From a virus (taxonomy: Duplodnaviria > Caudoviricetes), in the IMG/VR virus record IMGVR_UViG_3300031665_000002, positions 981-64,980 of that record: 64,000 nt of DNA; one strand, 5' to 3'. Below the pieces are notes generated by a model. That model made no database searches. It was not told the DNA's origin and saw nothing but the letters and a program-made list of their open reading frames with translations. A program made the translations under genes and the position numbers. Below are positions 1 through 45,831 of the stretch, piece after piece. Each line of letters opens with the position of its first letter. Position 1 is the first letter of the stretch.

Positions 1-1083
1 GCCTGCGCGCATCTTAAAGAGCGACATTAATTCGCTCTCAGAAACGCCCGCCTTTTTCAAGCGCTCCAAAATCTCAACGGCCCCATGAATACCTGGCTGA
101 ATATTTTTAACGTCAACATGCAACGCCTTAAGCTGCTTCCTAAATTCCTTCGTCGGCCCCGAGAGTCTGGAGAATATCGACCGCATGGACGTTCCAGCCA
201 TAGACGCCTCAAGGCCGTTTGAAGCCAGCACGGCTGACAACGCCGCCGTTTCTTCGAGTGAGACATTGAACCCGGCCATGATCGGCGCAACGTATTTGAA
301 CACCTCACCCAAGTTGTTGACGTTCGTTGTTGAAATGTTTGCAGCCTTAACCAGAACATCGGTAACGCGCGTAAGGTCTTTCACTTCAAGGTTCATGGCG
401 CGCATGACCTTTGACGTGATTTCCGACGCGCGCCCCACATCAAGGTTTGCGGCCTGGGCAAGATTCATTGTCGGAATGATGGACTCATAAACTTCGTTAA
501 CGTTGAGACCGGCTTTTGCCAGCTCAACCATTCCTAGCGCGACCTCTTGCGCCATAAAGCGCCCGGACGCGGCCACGTCTTGCGCCCGCTTGCGTAACTT
601 GGCCATCTGGGCGTCTGTCGCATGTGTGACACCCAGAACCGTACTCATGTTTTGCTCAAAGTCTGCAAGCCCGGTCACGGCGAAAAACGCCCCGGCAATA
701 CCGAGAAAGGCCGTAAGCTGGGCGAGCAACGCTTTCATGTTTGATTGCACGTTCGCAATCACGGTTGCCCATAGCCCGGTTGCCACTGCCGCCGTTTTTA
801 CAACCCGCCCCGTTGTAGCCGCAGCAACATTCATGCGCTCAATAGCGACAGCGGCGGCGTTCGCCTCAGCCGTTAGCTTGGTAAACGCGCTTGCGCCTAT
901 GCCGGAGAATTGCCGCATCATTGCGGTTAGGCGGCGAAGCTCGCGGAGCATGGCCGCGAGCGTCTTGTTGATGGAAAGCGCCCCCTTATCAACGCGGCCA
1001 AGCCCGGAACGCATGCGCTTTGTTCCGGCGTCGGCCTCGCTCGTATCCATGCGAATACGGATGTTATGCGTTGTTCCCGACAT
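1..1083 (-). CDS. Tail tape measure protein, N-terminal part (runs off window start)
   Basis: Manual translation from ATG at 1083 (MSGTTHNIRIRMDTSEADAG...) with no stop seen to base 1. Contains TP901-type TMP core (ADFEQNMSTVLGVT...ELAKAGLNVNEV...LAQAANLDVGRASEI) and follows the tail chaperones. Confidence 0.88.
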   Translation of the reverse strand, partial: MSGTTHNIRIRMDTSEADAGTKRMRSGLGRVDKGALSINKTLAAMLRELRRLTAMMRQFSGIGASAFTKLTAEANAAAVAIERMNVAAATTGRVVKTAAVATGLWATVIANVQSNMKALLAQLTAFLGIAGAFFAVTGLADFEQNMSTVLGVTHATDAQMAKLRKRAQDVAASGRFMAQEVALGMVELAKAGLNVNEVYESIIPTMNLAQAANLDVGRASEITSKVMRAMNLEVKDLTRVTDVLVKAANISTTNVNNLGEVFKYVAPIMAGFNVSLEETAALSAVLASNGLEASMAGTSMRSIFSRLSGPTKEFRKQLKALHVDVKNIQPGIHGAVEILERLKKAGVSESELMSLFKMRAG

Positions 1084-1524: not shown

Positions 1525-1967
1525 GCGACTTCCTCAGTGTTAACGCGCGGCTCATCCTCATCAAGGAAGCTGTCTTCGCTTTCGAAAAAGTCGCGCATGT
1601 CATCGAACATGTATTCCGGTATCTTTGCGCAGAACTGTTCACCGTTTTCAACGCTGAACGGGACTTCAGAACCGGCAACATCTGGCATGTTTTCCCAACC
1701 AACAAACACAAACTTAGGGAAAAGCCTCTTCAATACTCTGCGTTGCGCGGACATAAGTTCCGGCGTCAAGCGCCCCTTGCGCATTGTGCGGCTTCGTGAG
1801 CCCATTTCTTTCATGTACGCGTTAAAGAACGGCTTGTTATCCTGCGTCGCCGGACGCCCGATAATCACAACGGGCTTCTTCGGGTCAACCCCTTCAACTC
1901 GATCAACTTCATAACGCGCCGTCTTTTCAGCAACAGCGAGCTTATCAAGATTGGAAAAATCAGCCAT
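1515..1967 (-). CDS. Tail assembly chaperone (gpG-like)
   Basis: 150 aa between tail tube and TMP; ends in GCG GGA AAC TAG. Confidence 0.8.
   Translation of the reverse strand: MADFSNLDKLAVAEKTARYEVDRVEGVDPKKPVVIIGRPATQDNKPFFNAYMKEMGSRSRTMRKGRLTPELMSAQRRVLKRLFPKFVFVGWENMPDVAGSEVPFSVENGEQFCAKIPEYMFDDMRDFFESEDSFLDEDEPRVNTEEVAGN
1518..1524 (-). other. -1 programmed ribosomal frameshift heptamer GGGAAAC
   Basis: X XXY YYZ heptamer immediately before the stop; the -1 frame is continuous with the downstream ORF. Confidence 0.85.
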
Positions 1968-15323: not shown

Positions 15324-16664
15324 TTACATGCTCACCGCTTCAGGAGCGCCAGCAGGAGCGCGGCGCTTACCCCGGACAAACAATCGACGCAACGCCCACA
15401 CCATGGCGTCGATTCTGTCGGGTGATTCCATGCCTGACTCAGGTTCCCATGTTACCATTTGATCCTCAAGCATGGCGAACGCCCCGACCATGTGCATTCT
15501 GCCAGCTTCCCACAAGTTCGCAATGGGCTCAGCCCGCGCTTGTTTGGATTGGCGAGCATGAACAATCACAACCGGCACATTTTCATCACACTGGCGGATA
15601 ACTTCGCGAACCATTTCGCCGCCCTGGTTGCCCTCAGCAACAACAAGCGAAGCGCCTAGGCTATGATAAAGGGCGCATGTCTTTTGCCCCCAATCCTGCG
15701 GACTATAGCGCCCGGTTGCATCAGCCAACACATAGCCGTGACCATCCATTCCCTTACCCGCAGCAACAATGCCCGTCATGTTGCGCTTCATGGCCGTTGC
15801 CGGGTCAACGCCTATGTTGATTTCGCGCATTTCCGGCTCTTTATCAACGCGGGTGTTTTCGATTGTTTCGCGCGTCCATAGCGCGCCGTCCGACGCGTCC
15901 AAGTAGTCGGCGTAAAGCTCCTGACGACCAAGCGACGTTTGCGCGAAGGTATCCATCATATCTGAAAGGAAGTCTTCGGAAAGGTTAGCTTCGTTCTCAA
16001 ACGTTGAGCCGCGCGTTACCACGGTTCGCGGGTGCGCCTCGATTTCTCGCAAGATCGGGATTGCGCGCGGCGTTGTCGTGATGCACACGCGAACATCTGT
16101 TCCGGCCGTGCGCAGCGCAAACTTAAGCTGCTTCCATACTTCCGGTGCATAGCGATACTTCGCCAGCTCATCAACCCAGGCCGCGCCGAAGTTACCGCCG
16201 CGCAATTGGTCCGGCTTGTCGCCCGAATATAGCGTTGCATAAGCGCCGTTTTTCCATGTCAAACGCCGCATTGATGGCGTGTGTTCCGGCCTATCCCATG
16301 GCGGCGAGCAAGCCATGATGCCGGATTCACCATCAATGAGATAGTCGCGCACGTCGGCGGCGGTCTCGCCTATGATGGCGATACGCCCGACGCGATCTTT
16401 CATGGTGCGCACCCATTCACTACCCAGGCGCGTTTTGCCAAATCCGCGCCCGGCGCGGGCGAGCCAGTGCATCCAGTTTCCAGGTGGCTCTAACTGATTG
16501 TCACGCGCCCAGAACGGCCAATGGTAAACAAGCGCCGCCTTTTCCTCAATCGTCAGGCTTTGTAGAAAACTTTGAATTTGTGACGCGCTTAAGGAGTTCA
16601 AAGACTTTGCCGTCAAGCGCTCCGGCAGTTTCACGGATGGCGTCTGCAAGGTCGCTATTGTCAT
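15324..16664 (-). CDS. terL: Terminase large subunit
   Basis: Walker A AGRGFGKT, Walker B AWVDELA, nuclease IGVDPA, and SPDRIDAMVWA. Confidence 0.95.
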   Translation of the reverse strand: MTIATLQTPSVKLPERLTAKSLNSLSASQIQSFLQSLTIEEKAALVYHWPFWARDNQLEPPGNWMHWLARAGRGFGKTRLGSEWVRTMKDRVGRIAIIGETAADVRDYLIDGESGIMACSPPWDRPEHTPSMRRLTWKNGAYATLYSGDKPDQLRGGNFGAAWVDELAKYRYAPEVWKQLKFALRTAGTDVRVCITTTPRAIPILREIEAHPRTVVTRGSTFENEANLSEDFLSDMMDTFAQTSLGRQELYADYLDASDGALWTRETIENTRVDKEPEMREINIGVDPATAMKRNMTGIVAAGKGMDGHGYVLADATGRYSPQDWGQKTCALYHSLGASLVVAEGNQGGEMVREVIRQCDENVPVVIVHARQSKQARAEPIANLWEAGRMHMVGAFAMLEDQMVTWEPESGMESPDRIDAMVWALRRLFVRGKRRAPAGAPEAVSM

Positions 16665-19728: not shown

Positions 19729-19974
19729 CTATCCGGCCACGATTGGTTGAGATTTCAAGAATTCTTCCCCTTTCCTTTTAGCTTCGCTTCGTATGAAAAC
19801 GGCCATGTACACCAAGTCGGGGCGCGTCAGCCTGTAGCCGGACTCCCCGCCCTCGATGCCCTGTATTCGCCGCTTGCCGCAGTCCAACAGCTCCGCCGCC
19901 GCCCCTTGGGATATGCCCAACGCATCGCGCCACTCTCTAAGTGTTCCGCTCCATATTGGCAGCTCGCTAGTCAT
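19729..19974 (-). CDS. XRE/Cro-family HTH transcriptional regulator
   Basis: LREWRDALGISQGAAAELLDCGKRRIQGIEGG; divergent from the early promoter. Confidence 0.85.
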   Translation of the reverse strand: MTSELPIWSGTLREWRDALGISQGAAAELLDCGKRRIQGIEGGESGYRLTRPDLVYMAVFIRSEAKRKGEEFLKSQPIVAG

Positions 19975-20054
19975 AGTAGCCCCTTTCGTCTGTTGTTATG
20001 CCGCAACAATCTGTTTATCTCACGCGAAAATCGCTAACGCAACAAAAAAAAGTA

Positions 20055-20093
20055 GCGATTTCCGCACTTTTTTATTGACGGCGCGGAAATCGC
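20055..20093. promoter_or_regulatory. Putative operator: 11-bp inverted repeat bracketing the -35 box
   Basis: GCGATTTCCGC (20055-65) and GCGGAAATCGC (20083-93), 17 bp apart; related half-site GCGAAAATCGC near 20024-34. Confidence 0.6.
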
Positions 20094-20103
20094 GGTTTAT
20101 ATT
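20075..20103 (+). promoter_or_regulatory. Strong sigma70-type early promoter
   Basis: TTGACG-N17-TATATT with upstream A/T tracts (UP-element-like). Confidence 0.8.
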
Positions 20104-20210
20104 AAAATCATAGACAGGGCGGAGAGAGGCGCGGGGCAGGAGCCCACAAATCGAACCGGGAAGCCCAGGGAACCGGGAAGGCCAACAGGCCCCGGCCAAA
20201 AAATAACCAA

Positions 20211-20408
20211 GTCTTACTTGGCGAGCGCTCTTATCCGCAACTTGGCGAAGCACTCGCAACCACCTCTCAGATGCTGGAAACAGATAACGAACGCGGAACA
20301 CAGCTCAGCGGACACGATCCGCAATCCTGGCAACCCGAATGCGGAACCTGAAGTGAAAAGAACGCTACCACCGGCCAACAGGCTATGGGAGCGCTCACCA
20401 AGTAAGAC
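20211..20408 (+). ncRNA. Candidate structured leader/ncRNA closed by a 20-bp stem
   Basis: 20211-30 GTCTTACTTGGCGAGCGCTC is complementary at 19/20 positions to 20389-408; no credible ORF between promoter and 20432. Confidence 0.5.
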
Positions 20409-20431
20409 GACTGAAACAGAAGGGAAAGACA

Positions 20432-20671
20432 ATGCAACTGAACACCTCAGACCTACCCCCAGTAACTCAACTAGCACTCGCTGAAGTGCACCTCGAAAAG
20501 CTGGAAAAAGCAATGAAAGCTGATCGACAAGACGCGGGCGCTATTCAGCAGGTTACCGACCGCATTTTGCAAGTGAGAGCGTGGCGTGGCGCTGAAGTCA
20601 TTCATGACTTCATGCTTGAAGGCGCTCGCGAATGGAGCGCTTGGTATACAAGCAGCAGGTACGCCAAATAA
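20432..20671 (+). CDS. Early hypothetical protein (cassette 1)
   Basis: 79 aa; SD GAAGGGA. Confidence 0.7.
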   Translation: MQLNTSDLPPVTQLALAEVHLEKLEKAMKADRQDAGAIQQVTDRILQVRAWRGAEVIHDFMLEGAREWSAWYTSSRYAK

Positions 20672-20672
20672 A

Positions 20673-20733
20673 TAACCGCCTCTCTCAGCCGCCCCGTGAT
20701 AGGGCGGCCTTGACGGGCAGTTAACCCGAAAAC
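20673..20733 (+). repeat. Structured intergenic repeat copy 1
   Basis: TAACCGCCTCTCTCAGCCGCCC-loop-GGGCGGCCTTGACGGGCAGTTAACCCGAAAAC. Confidence 0.92.
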
Positions 20734-20747
20734 AGAAAGGCCAAACA

Positions 20748-20942
20748 ATGGAAGTATTCAGCACACCGGCATTGCCCGCACATTGGGTTGTGAGAGATGA
20801 TAACGGGGAACAGTGGATTGTTCCGGCACACAACAGCGGGTGGAGCAAAAAGCGCCCATATCGCGGAAATTACACCCTCGAAACGGCGCTATCTTACATG
20901 CCACCAGCAATTCGCAAACAACTGTACGGCATTCCAGCCTAA
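20748..20942 (+). CDS. Early hypothetical protein (cassette 2)
   Basis: 64 aa, Trp/Pro-rich; stop codon is the TAA of repeat 2. Confidence 0.75.
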   Translation: MEVFSTPALPAHWVVRDDNGEQWIVPAHNSGWSKKRPYRGNYTLETALSYMPPAIRKQLYGIPA

Positions 20943-20997
20943 CCGCCTTTTTTAGCCGCCCTTCGGGGCGGCCTTGACGGGCAGTTAAAATCTGAAA
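20940..20997 (+). repeat. Structured intergenic repeat copy 2
   Basis: P1 has a C-TTCG-G loop; P2 arm is TCTG instead of CCCG. Confidence 0.92.
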
Positions 20998-21012
20998 GGG
21001 AAGGGCAGAACA

Positions 21013-21123
21013 ATGAAACACATGCACAACGCACTTGAAATCACCTTTTGCATCGCCATTGCAGCCGCCGCCGCAAGGTGGGGAATTTACGCCGTCGCAT
21101 ATTTGGGGTTTGCAACCCTTTAA
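21013..21123 (+). CDS. 36-aa hydrophobic (membrane) peptide (cassette 3)
   Basis: MKHMHNALEITFCIAIAAAAARWGIYAVAYLGFATL; exactly fills the space between repeats 2 and 3; good SD. Confidence 0.65.
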   Translation: MKHMHNALEITFCIAIAAAAARWGIYAVAYLGFATL

Positions 21124-21180
21124 CCGCCTCTCTTAGCCGCCCCTCACGGGGCGGCCTTGACGGGCGATTGGACCCGAAAC
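21121..21180 (+). repeat. Structured intergenic repeat copy 3
   Basis: TAACCGCCTCTCTTAGCCGCCCC-TCAC-GGGGCGGCCTTGACGGGCGATTGGACCCGAAAC. Confidence 0.92.
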
Positions 21181-21203
21181 CCGACGCACGCGGAGATACA
21201 ACC

Positions 21204-21404
21204 ATGAAAGCATCTTTTGAAATTCTACCAGGAATTCGTATTCCTTATGTTGTCGAAAAAATCAACGATAACAGACACCTCGAAATCAGTTTTTTTGATG
21301 GGAAATGTTGGGCGTCAACCACCATCGAAAACACCGGCGTTATAACGTCAGAGCTAGTTCAAACGACTGTTTTAAATTGGATAGCAAACAATCCGCTAAA
21401 TTAA
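21204..21404 (+). CDS. Early hypothetical protein (cassette 4)
   Basis: 66 aa from MKASFEIL; SD GGAG. Confidence 0.7.
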   Translation: MKASFEILPGIRIPYVVEKINDNRHLEISFFDGKCWASTTIENTGVITSELVQTTVLNWIANNPLN

Positions 21405-21463
21405 ACCGCCTCGCTTAGCTGCCCTTTGTGAGGGCAGCCTTGCCGGGCAGTTAGCCCGAAAAC
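21402..21463 (+). repeat. Structured intergenic repeat copy 4
   Basis: P1 GCTGCCC/GGGCAGC, a compensatory change. Confidence 0.9.
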
Positions 21464-21478
21464 GGAAAGGGCAGAACA

Positions 21479-21688
21479 ATGAAGCGTAACGGCTCATACT
21501 GGAATGGTGTTGCACTTGTCCGGCACATGATTTTCGACACTGAAGAAGAAGCAACACAAGCGCTAAGCCTGATCAAACCCGAAAAAGACGACCCCGACTA
21601 CTACGCCGTAACGGCGTACAACAGCGGGGATGGCTACGTGATAGAAGCCCGCGAAAAAGACGGCAATCATTTTGTTGGACTTCTCTAA
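21479..21688 (+). CDS. Early hypothetical protein (cassette 5)
   Basis: 69 aa, acidic. Confidence 0.75.
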   Translation: MKRNGSYWNGVALVRHMIFDTEEEATQALSLIKPEKDDPDYYAVTAYNSGDGYVIEAREKDGNHFVGLL

Positions 21689-21745
21689 ACCGCCTCTTTT
21701 AGCCGCGCCCTTGGGCGCGGCCTTGACGGGCGATTACCCGAAAAC
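21686..21745 (+). repeat. Structured intergenic repeat copy 5
   Basis: P1 GCCGCGCC/GGCGCGGC, a compensatory insertion. Confidence 0.9.
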
Positions 21746-21761
21746 CTGGAAGGAAACGAAT

Positions 21762-21980
21762 ATGATTACACTACACCTAATAACAGACACGTTGTCAGAC
21801 GGTAGCAAAGCTTATGGCGTGAAACTCTGTAACGGGACAGAGGCCAGCGTCGAGCTTGATTGCGTCGATGGCCCTGCCGCTTGCGTGCTAATGAGTGCTT
21901 TACACGACGCATTAAACGAGGCTGAACAACCCGCAAGCATCGGCAACGATGTGACAAAAACCGCTGGATGGACTGACTAA
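21762..21980 (+). CDS. Early hypothetical protein (cassette 6)
   Basis: 72 aa from MITLHLITD; SD GGAAGG. Confidence 0.7.
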   Translation: MITLHLITDTLSDGSKAYGVKLCNGTEASVELDCVDGPAACVLMSALHDALNEAEQPASIGNDVTKTAGWTD

Positions 21981-22035
21981 CCGCCTCTTTTAGCCGCCCT
22001 TCGGGGCGGCCTTGACGGGCGATTGGACCCGAAAC
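21978..22035 (+). repeat. Structured intergenic repeat copy 6
   Basis: P1 has a C-TTCG-G loop; P2 is CGGG-CGATTGGA-CCCG, then AAAC. Confidence 0.92.
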
Positions 22036-22050
22036 AAGGGGTAACGACAC

Positions 22051-22245
22051 ATGCAGTACTTTAAAGACGCAAGCCGCAATCAACAAGTCGAGGAAGCCGC
22101 GCGATTGGTTGCGGCGGCCAGCAAGGAATATAAAACCGAAAAAGACCCAGAAGCCAAAAGGCTTGCGGGCGTTGCTTACCAACAAGCAAGTAGTGACTTC
22201 AACGATCTTTTCGCGCGCTTGATGCGCGAAGAAGCCGCCGAATAA
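22051..22245 (+). CDS. Early hypothetical protein (cassette 7)
   Basis: 64 aa, helical. Confidence 0.7.
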   Translation: MQYFKDASRNQQVEEAARLVAAASKEYKTEKDPEAKRLAGVAYQQASSDFNDLFARLMREEAAE

Positions 22246-22257
22246 GGGGGGACAAAA

Positions 22258-22659
22258 ATGCAAAACTTTGCACTTGCCCCACCACAAGACCATGAAGTTG
22301 AAGGCGGCGCGGAACCACAACGCCTTGATGTTAAGGTGTTAAAAGATGGCAGCATCGTTGATGCCAGTTCAGGGCGGCGGTTGAGACTCACCGAGACCGG
22401 AATTGAAGACCGGGACGGCAGAGAATATGAATTGCGCCCAGCGGCTCACGCAGCCTTAAGACGCGCAGTAGAACGCGCTCAAGCCAAGAGCGCGCGCGTA
22501 ACAATGTTAGAGTACGCCGGATTGTTTCCTGAAAAAGTGCTTGGCGTAGTCGTGCTGTGCACAGTAAGCACAGTCGCTTTTCTGGAAACAGACAACATTG
22601 TTATTCCTGCTGTAATATCTATTCTGGCGGGAATAATTGCATTGAAACACAGTCGATAA
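22258..22659 (+). CDS. Hypothetical protein with two C-terminal TM helices
   Basis: 133 aa; hydrophobic C-terminus. Confidence 0.65.
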   Translation: MQNFALAPPQDHEVEGGAEPQRLDVKVLKDGSIVDASSGRRLRLTETGIEDRDGREYELRPAAHAALRRAVERAQAKSARVTMLEYAGLFPEKVLGVVVLCTVSTVAFLETDNIVIPAVISILAGIIALKHSR

Positions 22660-22685
22660 AAAAACAAGTCGTCGGAGAATCTATC

Positions 22686-23120
22686 ATGACAATTTACACA
22701 CGCGAGAAACAACTTGCGCGCCTAGTCGGCCTATGGCCAAAACAAACAGCCGACAGGCGGCCCCGCCGCATTGCGGCAAACATAGTTCTACTTCGTCAGG
22801 CCGTGCGCCATATGGCCAGCCTTGCGAAAGGCCCCCACGCATGGACGTATGACGTCAACCGGCATATGGCGTTAAGTGAGGCGCTGCGCGAGGAACTTAG
22901 ACTTCTGCGCAAGCCTCGCGTATCGCACGAAGTCGTTTATCTACAAGATGCAGCGAAAGCCCGCCTCGCGCTTCAGCGTGGCAGCGCATATCCTGGCCGG
23001 TGGGATCGGCGCTTTACACGCGCCGAGCTTTTTGAGGCTCACCGGCGAGCAATCGCCGGAGCGCGCCAAGAACGTGAATTCAGACTTCGCGAGCGCAAGC
23101 TTGCGGAAAAGGCGGCGTAA
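22686..23120 (+). CDS. Hypothetical basic protein
   Basis: Start MTIYTREKQ; HAWTYDVNRHMAL motif, recalled from alphaproteobacterial hypothetical proteins. Confidence 0.6.
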   Translation: MTIYTREKQLARLVGLWPKQTADRRPRRIAANIVLLRQAVRHMASLAKGPHAWTYDVNRHMALSEALREELRLLRKPRVSHEVVYLQDAAKARLALQRGSAYPGRWDRRFTRAELFEAHRRAIAGARQEREFRLRERKLAEKAA

Positions 23121-23178
23121 CGCTTCCTTCAAGCCACAGCGCAAGTTGTGGCCTGGGGCGAGCGCTAAGGCTCGAAAC
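23118..23178 (+). repeat. Divergent copy 7 of the structured repeat
   Basis: TAAC-pyrimidine tract-GCCACAGC-GCAA-GTTGTGGC-CTGGGG-CGAGC-loop-GCTCG-AAAC: same architecture, different sequence. Confidence 0.65.
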
Positions 23179-23201
23179 TGAGAAAACCAGAGAACTTAAA
23201 C

Positions 23202-23384
23202 ATGTACACACGAGAACAGCTTGAGGCCATGACGCGAAATGCACTTTACCAACTCGCCAAGAGCGAAAACGTGCTCGTTTATGGCAATTACACTAAATCA
23301 CGCCTCATTGACTGCATTCTAGCCAAGCAATCAAGGCCGCTTGTCCCAGAGTCAATGAGTGCACGCAGCAAAGCCCAAAGGTGA
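23202..23384 (+). CDS. Rho N-terminal-domain-like (HeH) small protein
   Basis: YTREQLEAMT...LYQLAK...V......KSRLID.IL. Confidence 0.6.
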   Translation: MYTREQLEAMTRNALYQLAKSENVLVYGNYTKSRLIDCILAKQSRPLVPESMSARSKAQR

Positions 23385-23388
23385 AGCC

Positions 23389-23580
23389 ATGGAATACGAG
23401 GAAGATAATACACCGGCGGACGTCGCAAGAAGAATAATGACAAAGAAACTAACAACAAAGGTTAGGAACGGTGAAGTAAGCATCGAAGAACTGGTTGACA
23501 ATTACATGAGAGTGTATGAACTTAAGCTAGCGTATAGAAGACACACAATAAACGCGTGCCGAAATATAGTAAGGCCGTGA
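23389..23580 (+). CDS. Hypothetical protein
   Basis: 63 aa from MEYEED. Confidence 0.5.
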   Translation: MEYEEDNTPADVARRIMTKKLTTKVRNGEVSIEELVDNYMRVYELKLAYRRHTINACRNIVRP

Positions 23581-23657
23581 AGCTATAACGAAAAATGGCG
23601 GGCAATTTGCCCGCCAGTGTAACCCCATCTTCCAAAAAACCTGTGAAAGGATGAATC

Positions 23658-24722
23658 ATGGATAGCAAAGCGAGCGCATGGGCGCAAGCCATAACTGGCT
23701 TTATCATAGCCGGGCTTGTCGCCGCCTGCGTATACAACGACATTATGAACAACGTCGAATACGGGCAAAACATCTCAACAGAGATGGCGCTAGCCCTTGG
23801 CGTATTCGGCGCGGCTATCGGGATAATCCCGTTTGCGTCCGGCTTCGTCGGATGGAACCGCGTTTTTACCGCGGCGTTTGCCGTATGTGTTGCAATCACC
23901 GTCTACGCATCAGCGACAGCCTACCTTAACAAGCAGGGCGAAAACATCGTGCACGCCGCCGACAAGGCGACGGCGCATAAAAGCGCCCTGGCCGACGCCA
24001 GCGCCGCACGCGCCGAGTTGTCGAATATCCGCGAAAAGGGCGACGTTGCAGCCCTAACCGCTGCCCTCAAACTGGCGCAAAACCGCGCCCGCACCGAGGA
24101 AGCAAACGGCGGCTGCGGCGAACGATGCCGCACCGCTTACGCAAGCGCTGCAAGCTTGCTTGAGCGTATCGCCAACGCGAAAGCCCGTGACGCCGCTCAA
24201 AAACGCTTAATCGTCGCCAAGGCCGACGTCGCCAAAGGCGGCGCAATGGTGGACGCCGGGGCGGAGCTTATCGCCCGGCAGATTGGCGGAGAACCTGCCA
24301 ATATTGCGCAGACTCTCTCAGCGATCATGGCCGGGCTGGTCATTATCGCAACGCAACTTGTGGCCGCGTGCGGCCACCAAGCGGCGCGGCTGATTTCCAG
24401 CGGACTTGGCGCTATTTTTACAGCCAGCAAAAAGCCAAAGGCTAAGGCGCAAACCTCCCCGCCCCTTCAGAAGGGCAAAGGCGGACGCAAAGCGAATATC
24501 ACGCGCGAGCAAGCGCTTGAGATCCTGCGCAAACAGGCCGAGGCAGCAGGCGGGCAAATTATCGCCAGCGGCGCGGCAATCGCCCAATCGCTGGGCGTTG
24601 GTCGCTCGACCGTGTGCGACCCAAAGAAAGGCTGGCTTGCCTACTGGCAAAAAACCGGCTTGATAACAGTTGAAAGTAAGGGGCGCAAAACCGCGCTCAC
24701 AATCACGGCGAAAGCCGCTTAA
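23658..24722 (+). CDS. Membrane protein with coiled coil and C-terminal HTH
   Basis: Three N-terminal TM segments, coiled coil, TM at about 215-240, then SGAAIAQSLGVGRSTV HTH. Confidence 0.7.
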   Translation: MDSKASAWAQAITGFIIAGLVAACVYNDIMNNVEYGQNISTEMALALGVFGAAIGIIPFASGFVGWNRVFTAAFAVCVAITVYASATAYLNKQGENIVHAADKATAHKSALADASAARAELSNIREKGDVAALTAALKLAQNRARTEEANGGCGERCRTAYASAASLLERIANAKARDAAQKRLIVAKADVAKGGAMVDAGAELIARQIGGEPANIAQTLSAIMAGLVIIATQLVAACGHQAARLISSGLGAIFTASKKPKAKAQTSPPLQKGKGGRKANITREQALEILRKQAEAAGGQIIASGAAIAQSLGVGRSTVCDPKKGWLAYWQKTGLITVESKGRKTALTITAKAA

Positions 24723-33658: not shown

Positions 33659-34774
33659 TTAAACCCTCATCGGCATAAGAACATAAAGCACACCATCATC
33701 ACCAGAATCTCTGATAACGGCGGGCGCTGAAGGTCCAGACATTGAAAACGTCACAAACTCCCCGCCAATCTGGGCGAGCAGATCGGCGATGTACCGCGCG
33801 TTAAACCCTATCTCAAGCGCTCCGCCTTCATAGGTAACCGGCAGACCTTCCACCGCGTCGGCGTTCGTGCCGCTTGCCCGTATCGTCAACTCATCATTCG
33901 ACACGCAAAACTTGACGGGAACACCCGAGGCGTCAGACACAACGGCTATGCGTCCAACGGCCTGCGAAAGCAACTCGCAATTAGCTTGCATGGGGTGGCC
34001 ATCTTCAGTCGGGATTACGCGCATGTAATCCGGGAAGGTTCCGTCAATGAGCTTTGACACAATGCAGATGTCGCCAAACGCAAGCCTTACCTTGTTTGGC
34101 GACATCTGCACGAGGATTTCACCGCGAACCCCGGTCAACAATTTAATGGCCTCGCGGACCATTTTTCGCGGAAGAATTACGCCGGGCATCTCTTGCGCGC
34201 CTTCTGGCAAGGGCACATCTTGGCGCGCAAGGCGGTGGCCATCTGTCGCGACGCCGCGCAGGCGCCAGCCGTTGTCCGTATCGGCGGCGTGCAAATAGAT
34301 GCCGTTAAGATAATAGCGGGTTTCGTCGGTTGACATTGCGACTTGAGCGCAATTGAAAACTGCCAGCAACTCAGAAACCGGCAATCTAAACCTATGCGGC
34401 ATGATGCCTAGACTCACGTCCGGAAAGTCTGTAACCGGCAAATAGAATAAATTGAACCTCGACCGGCCAGACTTGACGGAAACTCGCATTGCCTCCGGAT
34501 CATCGGCAAATGCTACCGTACCGCCGCCAGAAAACCGCCCAACAATCTCACGCAATGTGAATGCATGAAGCGTTACGGCCCCTGACTCTTCAACCTCACA
34601 CTCAACAAGCTCTGAGATTTCCATGTCAAGGTCAGTGGCTTTCAGCCTCAAGCCGTCGTCGCTGGCGTCAAGTACAACATTAGCCAAAATCGGAATGGTG
34701 TTGCGCTTTTCAACAACGCTGGTAACGCGCTGCAATGCCTTGAACAAGACATCTTTTTCAATCGTAAATTTCAT
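33659..34774 (-). CDS. dnaN: DNA polymerase III beta sliding clamp
   Basis: 371 aa; VEKRNTIPILANV, ATDLDMEI, STDETRYYLNGI, VATDGHRLA, SKLIDGTFPDY.RVIP, YVLMPMRV. Confidence 0.97.
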   Translation of the reverse strand: MKFTIEKDVLFKALQRVTSVVEKRNTIPILANVVLDASDDGLRLKATDLDMEISELVECEVEESGAVTLHAFTLREIVGRFSGGGTVAFADDPEAMRVSVKSGRSRFNLFYLPVTDFPDVSLGIMPHRFRLPVSELLAVFNCAQVAMSTDETRYYLNGIYLHAADTDNGWRLRGVATDGHRLARQDVPLPEGAQEMPGVILPRKMVREAIKLLTGVRGEILVQMSPNKVRLAFGDICIVSKLIDGTFPDYMRVIPTEDGHPMQANCELLSQAVGRIAVVSDASGVPVKFCVSNDELTIRASGTNADAVEGLPVTYEGGALEIGFNARYIADLLAQIGGEFVTFSMSGPSAPAVIRDSGDDGVLYVLMPMRV

Positions 34775-35409
34775 AGCTCACACGCCCTGCTTATTTTCAT
34801 GGAATCTTCGCCGCTAACGCTGCCAATGTACCGAAACACGGACGTTATGCTAGACAGCCCGAGCAATTCGCGCACAGCCTCAGCATTGCCGGTCTTTTGC
34901 ATAATATGCGCGGCGCGCGTGCGGCGTAGAGATTCTGTTCCGTAATCAGTTGGATCTAACCCAATCGCGGCGGCCCACTGCTTCACAAGGCGGCTGTATT
35001 GTCTGGGCGTAATGTTTGATTTGGTGGCGTGCCTGCCGGTGAAAATGTACTCTTTTCGCTTCTTATCCGTTAACGCTATCCACTCCGCCAGCGCACGCGC
35101 TGTATTGTCAGAGAGTGAACACTTTATAGAGCGCCCCAAGCTTGCCGATTTAACAGTTATGTTGTCAGCAACAACGCCCTTCACAAGAACATCTGAAACC
35201 CTCATAGAAAGCAAATCAGACGCATGAAGCATTGTATCAATTGCAGTGTTAAACAATGCTGCGTCTCTAATGTCTTTCCATTCATTCCCACCATAAAGAA
35301 ACGTTCTAATCTTAACTACTTGCTTATGAGTAAACGCCTTACGTTGACCAACGGTAACGCCCTTATTCCACGCAGACTTTTTAGCGTTTTTTGACGCTTT
35401 CTTTCTCAT
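34771..35409 (-). CDS. Tyrosine recombinase-family protein, catalytic residues degenerate
   Basis: WNKG..VGQ, RDAALFNTAID, RQYSR.VK.W...IGLDP..YGT.SLRRT, RY.G; R>H, H>E and H>L substitutions. Confidence 0.8.
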   Translation of the reverse strand: MRKKASKNAKKSAWNKGVTVGQRKAFTHKQVVKIRTFLYGGNEWKDIRDAALFNTAIDTMLHASDLLSMRVSDVLVKGVVADNITVKSASLGRSIKCSLSDNTARALAEWIALTDKKRKEYIFTGRHATKSNITPRQYSRLVKQWAAAIGLDPTDYGTESLRRTRAAHIMQKTGNAEAVRELLGLSSITSVFRYIGSVSGEDSMKISRACEL

Positions 35410-35457
35410 TTGATACCCCCTTGTTTGAGTCAATAGCTGACATATACGCCAAGTGTG

Positions 35458-38962: not shown

Positions 38963-40393
38963 TTACGCGTCTTCGTGCCGTCGTTCCTTCCGTCGATCGT
39001 CAAGTTTGACGACGTTCGATCGACGATCGACACCGCCGCCGCCGCGTTCCCACGCAATGCGGCTTGCCCCTATGCCATCAACCTCAACGCCTTCAATGCG
39101 AAAACGCAGCCGCAAATCATCGGCGGCAGCGTTGATGCCCGCACAGACAAGCAAGCGGCGCTTTTGTTCTGCATCGGCGGCGGCATTGTCTGCCGGATCG
39201 GGCATAACCACCCACGCCGCGCGCGCGGCGCGCCGGTAAGTGTCGGCCCCAGCGAATTGAGCTTCAAGATTGTTCCCCGGCCTTTTCGGTGGGTGCACGA
39301 TCCCCAACACAGCCGCCCCGGTATTTGCCGCCCACTCCAGCAGCGGGCGAAGGCGACGCCGGATTGTCGCGTCATCTGAAACGCCGGTTCCAAAGAAGGC
39401 AAGCAATGGCGACAGCACCAGCAGGCGCACCCCACCGACAGCGGCTAACTCACTGGCAACGCGCGGCATTTGTTCGGAAATGTCAAGTGCGCCGCCCTGT
39501 GCATCGCGAATTACAATGCGGCTAAGATCGGCACCAGCCGCAACCAATCGTGGAACGATTGACGACGCCCCCATGTCCTCAACTTCAAATATAGCTACGC
39601 CCCCAGTAGCGCACCTTTCACCCGTCGGCCAGCCAAGCCCGGCAGAAATACGCGCTGCGCAATCAAGTGAAACTTGCGTCTTACCAGCTTTCGGCTGGCC
39701 CGACAGCAGCGACAAGGCCCCAGCCGGAAACACATTCGGCCACAGCCAGTCTGTTGATTGTTGCGTAATGGTGGCCGCCGACGTGAACAGCGCCGCAGGA
39801 GCGTCCCCCCCCTTCTTTGTCGCAAGCGTAACTTGTGGTGTGGCAAAGTCGGTTAACACTGAAATCCTGTCCTTGTACAGGCATTCAAGGCGCGCCATTG
39901 CTCCCTGATACATCGTGCCAGCAACCGGGATAAAATGCCTAAGCCCCTTTCCCCCAAGCTGTTTTGCAACGCGATCTTCGACGGCCTCGACGGCCTCGAC
40001 TGGGCATTCGTTCATCAATCGCCACGCAACATAAACCCAATGGCCTATATTTATTCGCAGAAACGGCGCGGGCTTAAATTGATCAAGCTTGGCCACATGG
40101 CTCGCCAACAGCTTGACGCCAAAGTGGCGTGTGCCGCGCAAATGTCCGCGCACAAGCTTAACGCCCGTAACCGCACCGTGAGTTTCAGCCATAAGCAAGG
40201 CGACGTTTCGCCCCGCCTTCTGTGTTTTTCGAATCCAGTCCGAAGCGCCGCCATGCTGATGTGGTGCAAACGTTACCGGCAAAGCCTTGCTCGTGCCGAT
40301 AGGAGCAAGCACCCAAGGAAAGAGGCTGGTACGGAAATTCTCAATAAATGCCACAGATTGCCGCGTTTCTGGCGGCGCAAACAAGCTAAACAT
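38963..40393 (-). CDS. AAA (RepA/AAA_25-like) primase-helicase-type ATPase
   Basis: DWLWPNVFP.GALSLLSGQPKAGKT, FEVED, VLSPLL; N-terminus resembles a degenerate RepB primase domain. Confidence 0.8.
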   Translation of the reverse strand: MFSLFAPPETRQSVAFIENFRTSLFPWVLAPIGTSKALPVTFAPHQHGGASDWIRKTQKAGRNVALLMAETHGAVTGVKLVRGHLRGTRHFGVKLLASHVAKLDQFKPAPFLRINIGHWVYVAWRLMNECPVEAVEAVEDRVAKQLGGKGLRHFIPVAGTMYQGAMARLECLYKDRISVLTDFATPQVTLATKKGGDAPAALFTSAATITQQSTDWLWPNVFPAGALSLLSGQPKAGKTQVSLDCAARISAGLGWPTGERCATGGVAIFEVEDMGASSIVPRLVAAGADLSRIVIRDAQGGALDISEQMPRVASELAAVGGVRLLVLSPLLAFFGTGVSDDATIRRRLRPLLEWAANTGAAVLGIVHPPKRPGNNLEAQFAGADTYRRAARAAWVVMPDPADNAAADAEQKRRLLVCAGINAAADDLRLRFRIEGVEVDGIGASRIAWERGGGGVDRRSNVVKLDDRRKERRHEDA

Positions 40394-44117: not shown

Positions 44118-45095
44118 ATGACAAAGCAAACCACCACAAAGAAGCCTAGCGCACCACGCAAGCGCGCAAGGGCCAGTTTTGGCCTTCAGTCAACCGAAAT
44201 AGACGCCCGCAAATCCAGCATAGGCGCAAGCGATGTGCGTATCATCTGCAATGGGACAGACGAACAGATTGAAAGACTCTGGCGAGAAAAGACGGGGAAG
44301 GCCGCGCCCGACGATCTGTCGGACAACATTCACGCGCAATTCGGGCACTTTATCGAAACCTTTCATCGGATGTGGTTCGAAGGCCGCGCCAACAACACTA
44401 TTATCAAGGTCAACAACCGCGTTGAAGGCGAAGGCGAGCTTTACGGCTCACACGTCACCCTCGACGGCTTCATAAACAAGCTGGAGCCGTTCGACACCGG
44501 CGCGGAAGATTTCGAATTGATGTGGACATGCCCGAAGCCAGCGCGCGCGGTGCCAGCCGTGTTCGAGATGAAATGGCGGAACGGCCATCAATTTAGCCCG
44601 GACAACCAGACGGCAACATTTTTGCCCCAGATCCACCATGCAATGGCGCTTACCGGCACGGATTACGCGGTGCTTTCAACGTTCACGAGCAATCTAAAAA
44701 TCATAGCCCGCGTGGTGAAGTTCAATGATGATTATTGGACAAAGGTTCGCGCGCGCGTTGACGCATTCGTTGCAAGCGTAAGGGCGGAAACCATGCCCCA
44801 AAGTTTTCCCCCACTGAACGCCAACGCGGCCACGCAAAAGACAATCTTGCAAACCGTCGATATGATGCAAACCACCGCCGCGAATATTTGGACGTTCTAT
44901 GCTGGTGAACTCATCGGCAACCAGCCCACGCCAGATGAAAAGCTTAAATTAACCGCGATTGAGAAGGCCAAGAAAGAACTAAAGGCCGTCATCGGAAAGG
45001 ATGTTGGCAAAGCGCACGGCGGCGGCATTTACACCAAGCGAGACGGGCGCGGAGCTATTTCTTTCTACAACGACAAAACCGACGAACGCCTATAA
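44118..45095 (+). CDS. YqaJ-like viral recombinase exonuclease
   Basis: RKSSIGASD...LWREKTG...G...E, TLDG, EMK, PQIHHAM motifs. Confidence 0.85.
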   Translation: MTKQTTTKKPSAPRKRARASFGLQSTEIDARKSSIGASDVRIICNGTDEQIERLWREKTGKAAPDDLSDNIHAQFGHFIETFHRMWFEGRANNTIIKVNNRVEGEGELYGSHVTLDGFINKLEPFDTGAEDFELMWTCPKPARAVPAVFEMKWRNGHQFSPDNQTATFLPQIHHAMALTGTDYAVLSTFTSNLKIIARVVKFNDDYWTKVRARVDAFVASVRAETMPQSFPPLNANAATQKTILQTVDMMQTTAANIWTFYAGELIGNQPTPDEKLKLTAIEKAKKELKAVIGKDVGKAHGGGIYTKRDGRGAISFYNDKTDERL

Positions 45096-45105
45096 GGGGG
45101 AAACG

Positions 45106-45831
45106 ATGGATAACGCAAACGCAATGCCGCCAGCAATCGCGGCGGCAATATGCAGCATAATGCAAAAAAAGCTCACCGCAGAACGCGGCGAGCAAGACAC
45201 CCGCGACGGGCGCGCCTATAGCTGGGCGTCCGTTGATGATATTTACGAAGCAGTAAGCGCGGAGATGGCCGCAGCCGGGCTTATCTCTGAAATGATCGCA
45301 TGCGGAAAGCCGGAATGGATAACGATCAACGACGCGGCGCAAGGCGGCGAACGGCAGGCGCTCAGCCTGACATACCGATTTCAGATCACAAACAGAGACG
45401 GCGAGCGCTACGCCGACCCCGACAACTTGTGGCCTATCGTGGCGTGGTTTGAAGGGGCGACGACGACCGCCGCCGCTCGAAGCCTTGCGCATAAACAAGC
45501 CCTGCGCGACCTATTCAAAATCAGAACGGTTGACCCAACGCTTACCATGAACGGAAAGGCCGAACAACCAGCCGCCACAGCCGCGCCAGCGGCAACAAGG
45601 GTGTTAAAGCCAAAACAACCACAAGAGCGATTAATGCTTTCCGAAGAAGACAGCGCCGCAAGGCGCGATGAAATCATAGAAAAGTTGAAAGCAGCAGCGG
45701 GAAGGAAGAAGGGCGATGCGCGCGCAACTGCGCTTAAAAACGCTTTTAGAGCTAACGCTGGCGGCATAGGCCGACTTACTCAGGCCGATAGCTCCGCCAT
45801 AACTACCGCCTATAGCGAGCTATTGGGATGA
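45106..45831 (+). CDS. ERF-family single-strand annealing protein
   Basis: YSWASVDDIYEAV...MAAAGL...A.S.A.KQALRDLF.I.T; follows YqaJ. Confidence 0.7.
   Translation: MDNANAMPPAIAAAICSIMQKKLTAERGEQDTRDGRAYSWASVDDIYEAVSAEMAAAGLISEMIACGKPEWITINDAAQGGERQALSLTYRFQITNRDGERYADPDNLWPIVAWFEGATTTAAARSLAHKQALRDLFKIRTVDPTLTMNGKAEQPAATAAPAATRVLKPKQPQERLMLSEEDSAARRDEIIEKLKAAAGRKKGDARATALKNAFRANAGGIGRLTQADSSAITTAYSELLG

Follow-up and report, generated by a model that had tools for sequence, protein, structure and literature searches.

A covarying hairpin repeat between the small early genes of an uncultured phage is a candidate mRNA processing or stability element

The early region of an uncultured phage, IMG/VR virus record IMGVR_UViG_3300031665_000002, contains a family of structured repeats, which we analysed in a stretch of 64,000 nt (positions 981 to 64,980 of the record, hereafter the window; coordinates below are those of the window). 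The record is 64,980 bp long, has terminal repeats and is rated complete, and the window covers nearly all of it. Between small open reading frames (ORFs), at 20669-23181, a ~65-nt element is present on the + strand in six close copies and one divergent copy. The hairpin that it forms is a compact and covarying motif with a conserved internal loop and without an Rfam family. By analogy with known phage systems, the reading that we favour, with moderate confidence, is that the repeat serves between the cistrons of the early mRNA as a signal of the RNase III type for processing or stability. A structured junction repeat between small early genes already has precedents, in phage T7 and in the literature on promoter early stem-loops (PeSLs).

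The six close copies lie at 20669-22038 with a spacing of 183–289 nt, and all were found at the positions listed in an earlier note on this DNA. They are clearly enriched over shuffled sequences: the 16-nt motif of the 3' arm has six matches at up to two mismatches, all on the + strand, where shuffles gave a mean of 1.4, and the 21-nt motif of the 5' arm has six matches where 0 were expected. One extra match to the 3' arm, with three mismatches, lies at 39980, outside the array. A covariance model built from the six close copies scores them at 72–83 bits and also recovers the divergent copy that the note had placed near 23118 (25.1 bits, E about 6e-5); searched against both strands, it gave no other match except mirror images of the known copies, and the whole 64,980-bp genome holds no further copies. 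Identity among the close copies reaches 97% over 32 nt. The copies, with their covariance model scores, are as follows.

20669..20736, + strand, repeat copy 1: 79.8 bits; fold of -26.2 kcal/mol, z -3.6; hairpin plus tail
20936..21000, + strand, repeat copy 2: 71.7 bits; UUCG loop; without the CCCGAAAAC tail
21117..21183, + strand, repeat copy 3: 83.4 bits; fold of -31.2 kcal/mol, z -4.5
21399..21466, + strand, repeat copy 4: 81.3 bits; compensatory changes in the upper stem and in a 2-bp mini helix
21683..21749, + strand, repeat copy 5: 78.6 bits; C-G to G-C swap in the upper stem; CUUG loop
21974..22038, + strand, repeat copy 6: 80.8 bits; 5' part almost the same as that of copy 2, 3' part in agreement with copy 3
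23113..23181, + strand, repeat copy 7, divergent: 25.1 bits; architecture kept, stem sequences differ

The element folds into a hairpin of 19 pairs, interrupted into runs of 9, 2 and 8. Its foot is a TAA with which, as the earlier note had observed, the upstream ORF ends in copies 2-7 (6/7); at copy 1 the true stop of the upstream ORF, o1, lies 4 nt upstream of the hairpin TAA. In the lower stem, AACCGCCU pairs with GGGC(A/G)(G/A)UU, leaving one constant mismatch. Then come a conserved internal loop, split by the 2-bp mini helix, and a GC-rich upper stem of 7–9 pairs (GCCGCCC with GGGCGGC), which is perfectly paired in all six close copies. The interruptions are all symmetric (1x1, 1x1 and 3x3) and there are no bulged bases. 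The terminal loop is 4–7 nt long and reads cUUCGg on the + strand in two copies and cCUUGg in one. CUUGAC, which follows the upper stem on the 3' side of the internal loop, is invariant in five of the six close copies, the sequence after the whole hairpin is ACCCGAAAAC, and no U tract is found at either place. Five of the six close copies have the single-stranded tail CCCGAAAAC 3' of the hairpin, and copy 7 has the variant CUCGAAAC. A Shine-Dalgarno (SD) motif and a start codon follow shortly, as expected from the earlier note, although the ATG is 21–31 nt past the hairpin rather than 15–25 nt, and blocks around the ribosome-binding site (RBS) downstream of the hairpin are common to several copies.

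Pairing in this hairpin is kept by selection, and the description of the repeat as a structured element thus holds. The close copies fold at -26 to -31 kcal/mol, with z scores of -2.7 to -4.5. Across these six copies pairing is kept in 92% of cells, and at four pairs both sides have changed, a number reached in none of 500 shuffles (0/500). When copy 7 is added, four covarying pairs are gained and 8 of the 19 pairs change on both sides, in an alignment that was made by the covariance model and is therefore fitted to the structure and biased towards it. In copy 4 the mini helix changes from U-A to G-C, which indicates that the A of TTGAC belongs to a base pair rather than being merely part of a -35 box.

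The evidence on which strand folds is mixed. A U.G wobble is kept in 7/7 copies on the + strand alone, and the UUCG and CUUG loops, the sense of the ORFs and the stop-codon and RBS context all favour the + strand. However, the RNA of the - strand folds better by 3–9 kcal/mol in five of the six close copies, and where the lower stem of the + strand has its constant C.A (or A.C) mismatch, the - strand has G.U. Both points weigh against an element of the early mRNA, and because the - strand folds better, the choice of the + strand rests on the wobble, the loops and the gene context.

The array is preceded by a promoter of the host type and a structured leader, and by a divergent regulatory gene.

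20075..20103, + strand, early promoter of the sigma70 type: TTGACG, 17-nt spacer, TATATT (10/12 in a consensus scan)
20104..20431, + strand, non-coding leader of ~330 nt, in which a ~20-bp stem (20211-20230 with 20389-20408) closes a domain of ~160 nt
19729..19974, - strand, gene for a Cro/CI-like helix-turn-helix (HTH) protein of 81 aa (HTH match), divergent from the early operon; homologues of 49–62% identity occur at this position in relatives

The spacer of the promoter carries an operator-like palindrome of the form CGCGGAAWTCGCG. Both hexamers, this palindrome and an A-rich stretch upstream are conserved in L180 and L184, two relatives found through the HTH protein. Across the three lineages the promoter region lies at 20040-20110 in the window, at 1700-1760 (-) in L180 and at 80-160 (-) in L184, with TTGAC and a -10 box of the TTAYAY form. 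No -10-like hexamer is present 16–18 nt after TTGACG in any copy of the repeat; the hexamers found at that distance are of the CAGAAA, AGGGAA and CCCGAC types. A promoter scan called none inside the array and a terminator scan called none at the repeats, the weak terminator-like calls on the + strand all falling inside ORFs. Since the copies have neither -10 hexamers nor U tracts, the array reads from its sequence as one operon, probably transcribed from the single host-type promoter. An intrinsic terminator was rejected as the identity of the repeat, as there is no U tract and the scan called none. A strong T-tailed terminator at 23596-23616 is present on the - strand only, between the array and the gene for a 354-aa membrane protein. 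It would stop leftward transcription short of the array, which makes a role for the repeats in antisense RNA unlikely.

The arms of the leader stem form an inverted repeat with 95% complementarity, and the stem is kept in both the minimum-free-energy and the centroid folds; neither a credible ORF nor an Rfam match was found in the leader (20104-20431). The 3' arm of the stem stops 24 nt short of the first ATG, and GAAAC and an SD motif come after it, as in the repeats. With the leader stem and the repeats taken together, o1-o7 and o10 thus each start a fixed short distance past a duplex, and given its modelled fold the leader duplex is a plausible substrate of a double-stranded RNA nuclease. 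The leader of L180 is only ~90 nt long and is without the domain closed by the long-range stem. At 20116-20133 the leader also holds an inverted partial copy of the repeat 5' arm (GGGCGG, a 3-nt gap, then AGAGAGGCG), and the relatives have GACGGGCAGG at the matching place, with 9 nt in common with the repeat 3' arm. Chance could explain these resemblances; a pairing partner and a binding site in common are the other possibilities.

The operon carries eleven small ORFs at 20432-23580, each of which scores best in its own frame by the codon usage of the long genes of the phage, and each of which has an SD-like motif. In the repeat-bounded part the ORFs are 36–79 aa long, one to each interval, and have no mutual similarity, so that the earlier picture of unrelated cargo, one ORF per interval, stands.

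20432..20671, + strand, o1, orphan ORF of 79 aa: coding score best in frame, SD; no homologue beyond itself
20748..20942, + strand, o2, orphan ORF of 64 aa: coding score
21013..21123, + strand, o3, hydrophobic ORF of 36 aa: coding score
21204..21404, + strand, o4, orphan ORF of 66 aa: coding score; 37% GC
21479..21688, + strand, o5, orphan ORF of 69 aa: no homologue beyond itself; weak match to DUF7336
21762..21980, + strand, o6, orphan ORF of 72 aa: coding score
22051..22245, + strand, o7; 22258..22659, + strand, o8; 22686..23120, + strand, o9: early ORFs with no repeat between them
23202..23384, + strand, o10, and 23389..23580, + strand, o11: last small ORFs of the operon; coding score

No homologues of the ORFs were found in PHROGs, in Pfam or in the 1.7 Mb of loci examined, and o1 and o5 have no homologue beyond themselves in a collection of 5.8 billion proteins; an Atlas search with o5 returned unnamed clusters only. 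For o10 (60 aa) Pfam gave a weak match, under its cut-off, to the N-terminal domain of Rho (Rho_N, SAP-like; E 0.003). Origin of the ORFs by duplication was rejected, as their best mutual z score is 2.5, and read-through or fusion across the stop codons was rejected because the stop-to-start distances of 73–83 nt are never a multiple of 3. The array ORFs have a GC content of 49% and a third-position GC content (GC3) of 0.50, compared to 55% and 0.585 in the core genes, and the repeats have 56–68% GC. The composition of o4 (37% GC, GC3 0.34), in a genome of 54.5% GC, suggests a recent foreign origin for this ORF.

The closest functional parallel that we find is the early region of T7, whose early precursor RNA carries five RNase III signals and in which 3' hairpins are determinants of stability, a single RNase III cut leaving a 3' hairpin that stabilises the upstream message (PMC3867540). 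By the criteria of that work, the phage repeat forms an irregular hairpin of about two helical turns (PMC3867540), and like a T7 signal it is intercistronic in an early polycistronic transcript. When folded, the early intergenic regions of T7 have an upper stem of ~9–13 pairs, set off from a lower stem by an internal loop. We took the sites to be R0.3, R0.5, R1, R1.1 and R1.3 at their generally accepted positions, which fit the intergenic gaps of the T7 record. The two families are alike in that irregular hairpins of ~50–60 nt with this three-part build recur from cistron to cistron along a single early polycistronic transcript, which the host polymerase makes. In both, the upstream stop lies at or near the hairpin foot (in T7 the lower stem begins with the gene 0.4 stop, and the gene 0.7 stop lies 5 nt before the stem) and an RBS follows shortly after. 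In both, too, the copies resemble one another, the T7 sites having sequence blocks in common, and the stems covary. In contrast, there is no sequence similarity between the T7 sites and the phage repeat, the phage stems are far richer in GC, the phage internal loop is divided by the 2-bp helix, and the host of the phage is probably an alphaproteobacterium. The T7 cargo consists of known genes both large and small, whereas that of the phage consists of seven to eleven tiny orphan genes. Hairpins that stabilise messages between cistrons are also known from bacteria, as the repetitive extragenic palindromic (REP) elements of E. coli malEFG and the puf hairpins of Rhodobacter capsulatus. These likewise are stable and lie between cistrons without a U tract; they block 3' exonucleases and set the levels of mRNA segments. 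However, REP elements are genome-wide families of the host, whereas the phage repeat is private to one operon and has a conserved tail and RBS.

Because the T7 sites have the same geometry and their 3' hairpins stabilise messages, we rank a processing or stability role first, followed by translational or protein-binding control, and then by PeSL-like, attC-like and duplex-DNA elements. The sequence itself shows the copies, their fold and covariation, their placing with respect to stop and start codons, the single promoter and the lack of -10 hexamers and U tracts; what we infer is cleavage, stabilisation and recombination at the repeats. Transcription from the promoter at 20075 would yield a long RNA in which a structured leader precedes eleven small cistrons. 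The 19-pair hairpin would form after six of these cistrons, and 4 nt past the stop of o1. Cleavage in or close to the conserved internal loop would then leave the upstream message with a 3' hairpin cap and would give each downstream cistron an identical short 5' leader, and the expression of each small gene could thereby be insulated from its neighbours. As a by-product, the DNA would contain seven near-identical stretches of 50–60 nt that may be substrates for the exonuclease/ERF pair of the phage, and recombination between the repeats would account for mosaic copies and variable gene content. Apart from the strand energies given above, two points count against this proposal: the identity of the close copies exceeds what the structure needs, which points to recent spread, gene conversion or sequence-specific recognition, and RNase III is an enzyme without a strong sequence signature. 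Another enzyme could make the cut, or the hairpin could serve only as an exonuclease block or a protein-binding site.

The repeat region varies strongly between relatives, as seen from the gene that ends it, and the phage encodes its own homologous recombination pair.

23658..24722, + strand, gene for a 354-aa membrane protein, which ends the variable region; its L180 homologue directly follows the single ORF there
44118..45831, + strand, YqaJ-like exonuclease and ERF-family annealase (Pfam), the phage's own homologous recombination pair

In L180, which shares the promoter and has an HTH protein 62% identical, a single 93-aa ORF separates the promoter from the membrane protein homologue (25% identity, E 2e-12 by BLASTP), compared to eleven ORFs here. 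A relative with a 68% identical terminase has a divergent array of small genes whose sizes differ, and terminases at 87%, 79% and 68% identity exist in the large protein collection. The one at 79% is on a 24-kb contig of run ERR13166144 that stops 176 nt past the HTH gene, and the one at 68% on an 8-kb contig of JGI metagenome 3300075153. No repeat-like array was found in phages of IMG/VR or GenBank, whose terminases reach 47% identity at most, and the relatives L178 and L179 (terminase 59% and 61% identical) have no copy. The repeat is likewise absent from L180-L185, the contigs with the shared promoter found through the HTH protein, and no relatives were found in IMG/VR through the membrane protein or the initiator. 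The copies themselves are mosaic: copy 6 has 97% identity to copy 2 in its 5' part but agrees with copy 3 over the first 15 nt of its 3' part, and for copy 1 the nearest neighbour is copy 3 on the 5' side and copy 4 on the 3' side. Together these comparisons support, at the level of sequence, an array that is an accessory and hypervariable part of the early operon and whose copies show signs of recombination. The exonuclease/annealase pair could act on the repeats, a link that is our own suggestion; the ERF match scores 21.2 bits, under the curated Pfam cut-off of 25. The mosaics and the gene content would fit homologous and site-specific recombination alike. The proposal of an exchangeable accessory array in the earlier note keeps partial support, from the variable gene content, the mosaic copies and the exonuclease/ERF pair, but not in its use of an attC-type site, the features of which fail. 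Four independent metagenome assemblies of relatives end 50–200 nt upstream of the HTH gene, just where the variable region begins, a circumstantial observation that fits strain heterogeneity or repeats.

Control of translation without cleavage is the first alternative to weigh, and we consider it rather unlikely. It holds that the hairpin couples or tunes successive cistrons: a ribosome at the TAA would melt the lower stem, and the freed CGGGC would pair with GCCCG of the tail beside the next RBS; alternatively, a phage or host protein would sit on the conserved internal loop. The position of the stop codon within the hairpin foot and the near-invariance of CUUGAC in the internal loop fit such a role. 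In five of the six close copies CGGG(C) and (G)CCCG can form an alternative hairpin of 4–5 bp; the partners at that place in copy 7 read CGAGC and GCTCG, so that both have changed. When the first 20 nt are held open, copies 1 and 4 fold into the upper stem plus this small hairpin. However, the accessibility of the SD and AUG does not change consistently between the two states, copy 2 has no tail, the second hairpin is backed by a single covarying example, and no RNA-binding protein is identifiable among the orphan ORFs. A switch that sequesters the SD was rejected on the same folds, in which it had no consistent effect. The repeat could also act as a PeSL, in which a stem-loop stops transcription, a promoter with TTGACG as its -35 box restarts it and the copies provide homology for shuffling. 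PeSLs mediate insertions and deletions by homologous recombination in T4-type phages (PMC2839356, PMC4122927), and the phage repeat resembles them in being repeated between orphan genes of a hyperplastic region, with copies that can recombine with one another. The stem-loop is indeed followed by TTGACG, which matches the -35 box of the phage's own early promoter, and the single ORF of L180, the mosaic copies and the lower GC of the array ORFs compared to the core genes all agree with this idea. Nevertheless we regard it as improbable. A PeSL by definition has a strong sigma70-like promoter, with both hexamers, and an effective terminator (PMC2839356), whereas the phage repeat has a -35 look-alike without a -10 hexamer, and a stable stem without a U tract past it and without a promoter or terminator call. 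Moreover, TTGAC is part of the conserved fold, its A pairing in the mini helix and changing to C together with its partner in copy 4. The view of the repeat as an expression unit, put forward in the earlier note, is not supported in the PeSL sense.

The other alternatives place the function of the element in DNA. In one, the repeat is a folded-DNA site of the integron type, either attC-like or a non-canonical site recognised by a small Xer-like recombinase in trans, and the ORFs are mobile cassettes. Clusters of attC sites without an integrase (CALIN) occur in phages, and short sites of 50–60 nt recombine with IntI1 (Qi et al. 2023, PMC9892861). The likeness to these is real: the repeat is an imperfect hairpin of ~50 nt, a size within the range of the phage attC sites, that follows each small ORF, often with the stop codon within its first box. 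Copies 1, 2 and 4, and these only, have the TAAC...GTTA ends that had been noted and that resemble the cores of short phage attC sites that have been validated (Table S3, PMC9892861). In addition, the - (bottom) strand folds better, and the nearest neighbour of a copy differs between the parts 5' and 3' of an invariant core. We compared features rather than scores, as a covariance model of one long attC type would be unfair to short sites, and used as references the seven sequences of Table S3 (PMC9892861) and 15 sites of the integron of Vibrio phage MK672802, which were not scored against the strict heptamer consensus. Both AAC and GTT, which are invariant and pair with each other in attC sites, are present in 15/15 MK672802 sites and 7/7 Table S3 sites. 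In the repeat AAC is found in 6/6 close copies, but GTT becomes ATT in copies 3, 5 and 6, and RYYYAAC occurs in 1/6 and GTTRRRY in 0/6. The earlier note had matched copy 2 to the attC spacing; it does have RYYYAAC, but its GTTAAAA misses the last position of GTTRRRY. The 5 nt beside AAC and GTT, where an attC site has its unpaired central spacer, form 3–4 Watson-Crick pairs plus a wobble, compared to 0–2 pairs in the 15 MK672802 sites. Real attC sites have bulged bases in the next helix (the L box), by which the recombining strand is marked, and their conservation ends at the 3' core, past which the next cassette lies, whereas the repeat has no extrahelical bases, its upper stem being perfect in 6/6 and its mismatches symmetric, and its conservation runs 3' past the hairpin into the tail and RBS. 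A full integron has an IntI-type integrase with attI and Pc beside the array; the window encodes no IntI, as had been stated, and only one recombinase.

34771..35433, - strand, Xer-like tyrosine recombinase of 220 aa, without the N-terminal domain; overlaps the start of dnaN (beta clamp)

This protein lies 12 kb away from the array in the replication operon. Aligned to XerA (4a8e), it has His for Arg-I, Glu for His-II (HxxR) and Leu for His-III and keeps the Tyr, and in NCBIfam it reaches no more than 56 bits, with an archaeal XerA/integron-integrase model that has a cut-off of 220, and lies far below the Xer and IntI cut-offs. With these substitutions the protein is unlikely to work as a recombinase. 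Judged by the features compared, the element is no attC site, and the attC-like geometry first proposed for it is not upheld; the wider reading of a folded-DNA site with mobile cassettes we find quite improbable. A variant is that the repeat would be a new kind of recombination site, folded or duplex, in phages of Alphaproteobacteria, with its crossover in the invariant core CCTTGACGGGC, and would also work as an RNA junction of the operon. Each cassette would run from the 3' part of one repeat through the ORF to the 5' part of the next, and a recombinase in trans or the ERF system would exchange it between phages. To this we assign only a small chance. Lastly, the element could act as duplex DNA, either as a repeated operator for a DNA-binding protein of phage or host or as a small mobile palindromic element spread between genes, with the high identity between copies, the palindromic outer arms and the 15-nt inverted partial copy in the leader (20116-20133) in its favour. 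This reading is highly improbable, because compensatory changes preserve the pairing while the sequence changes, the loop length varies from 4 to 7 nt and the sides of the internal loop are conserved yet mutually asymmetric. The conserved unit also spans from stop codon to RBS, with no terminal repeats as its bounds.

The distribution of the repeat bears on both DNA-level explanations. Searches of phage and metagenome databases, which the earlier note had proposed as a check, and of genomes returned only chance matches without a hairpin. A 15-mer of the 3' arm has more than 100 matches in IMG/VR, each of them single and at chance level. A specific gapped pattern of the repeat has 0 viral, 2 genome and 3 metagenome matches, none with the hairpin and mostly intragenic, and in agreement with this the repeat is absent from the 185,579 species genomes searched. 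The pattern thus occurs in no other viral, genome or metagenome contig, which argues against a cassette site, and the element has no copies elsewhere in the phage or in these species genomes, which argues against a duplex element. Rfam gave no match over the whole window at its gathering threshold and only noise in E-value mode at 20000-23700. A mobile element of the REP type or of the MITE type, MITEs being miniature transposable elements with inverted repeats, was rejected, as there are seven copies only, in one operon and one orientation, and the collections gave chance matches. A CRISPR, a tandem antitoxin RNA, a partition site and replication iterons were rejected on spacing, coding content and covariation.

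If the processing or stability reading is true, one connector would combine the stop codon with a hairpin for insulation or processing and with a leader and RBS that are alike for all cistrons, and any small gene placed between two such connectors would be expressed. It would join mRNA processing sites of the T7 type with the recombination-prone junction repeats of the PeSL type, and would extend both ideas to a phage lineage without a cultured relative. For phage genomics, the repeat would mark likely sites of accessory gene gain and loss. The instance is a modest one, with seven copies in one genome.

The remainder of the window places the array in a tailed phage genome. It encodes head genes of the Mu type and a large terminase (15324-16664), and a tail protein with Phage-tail_3 and Rcc01698_C domains. 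Also encoded are DnaB, a beta clamp and an N6 methylase, along with the YqaJ-like exonuclease, the ERF-like annealase and the 220-aa tyrosine recombinase. The cultured phages nearest by terminase (41–45% identity) include phages of Roseobacter, Brevundimonas and Dinoroseobacter, and the host is therefore probably an alphaproteobacterium.

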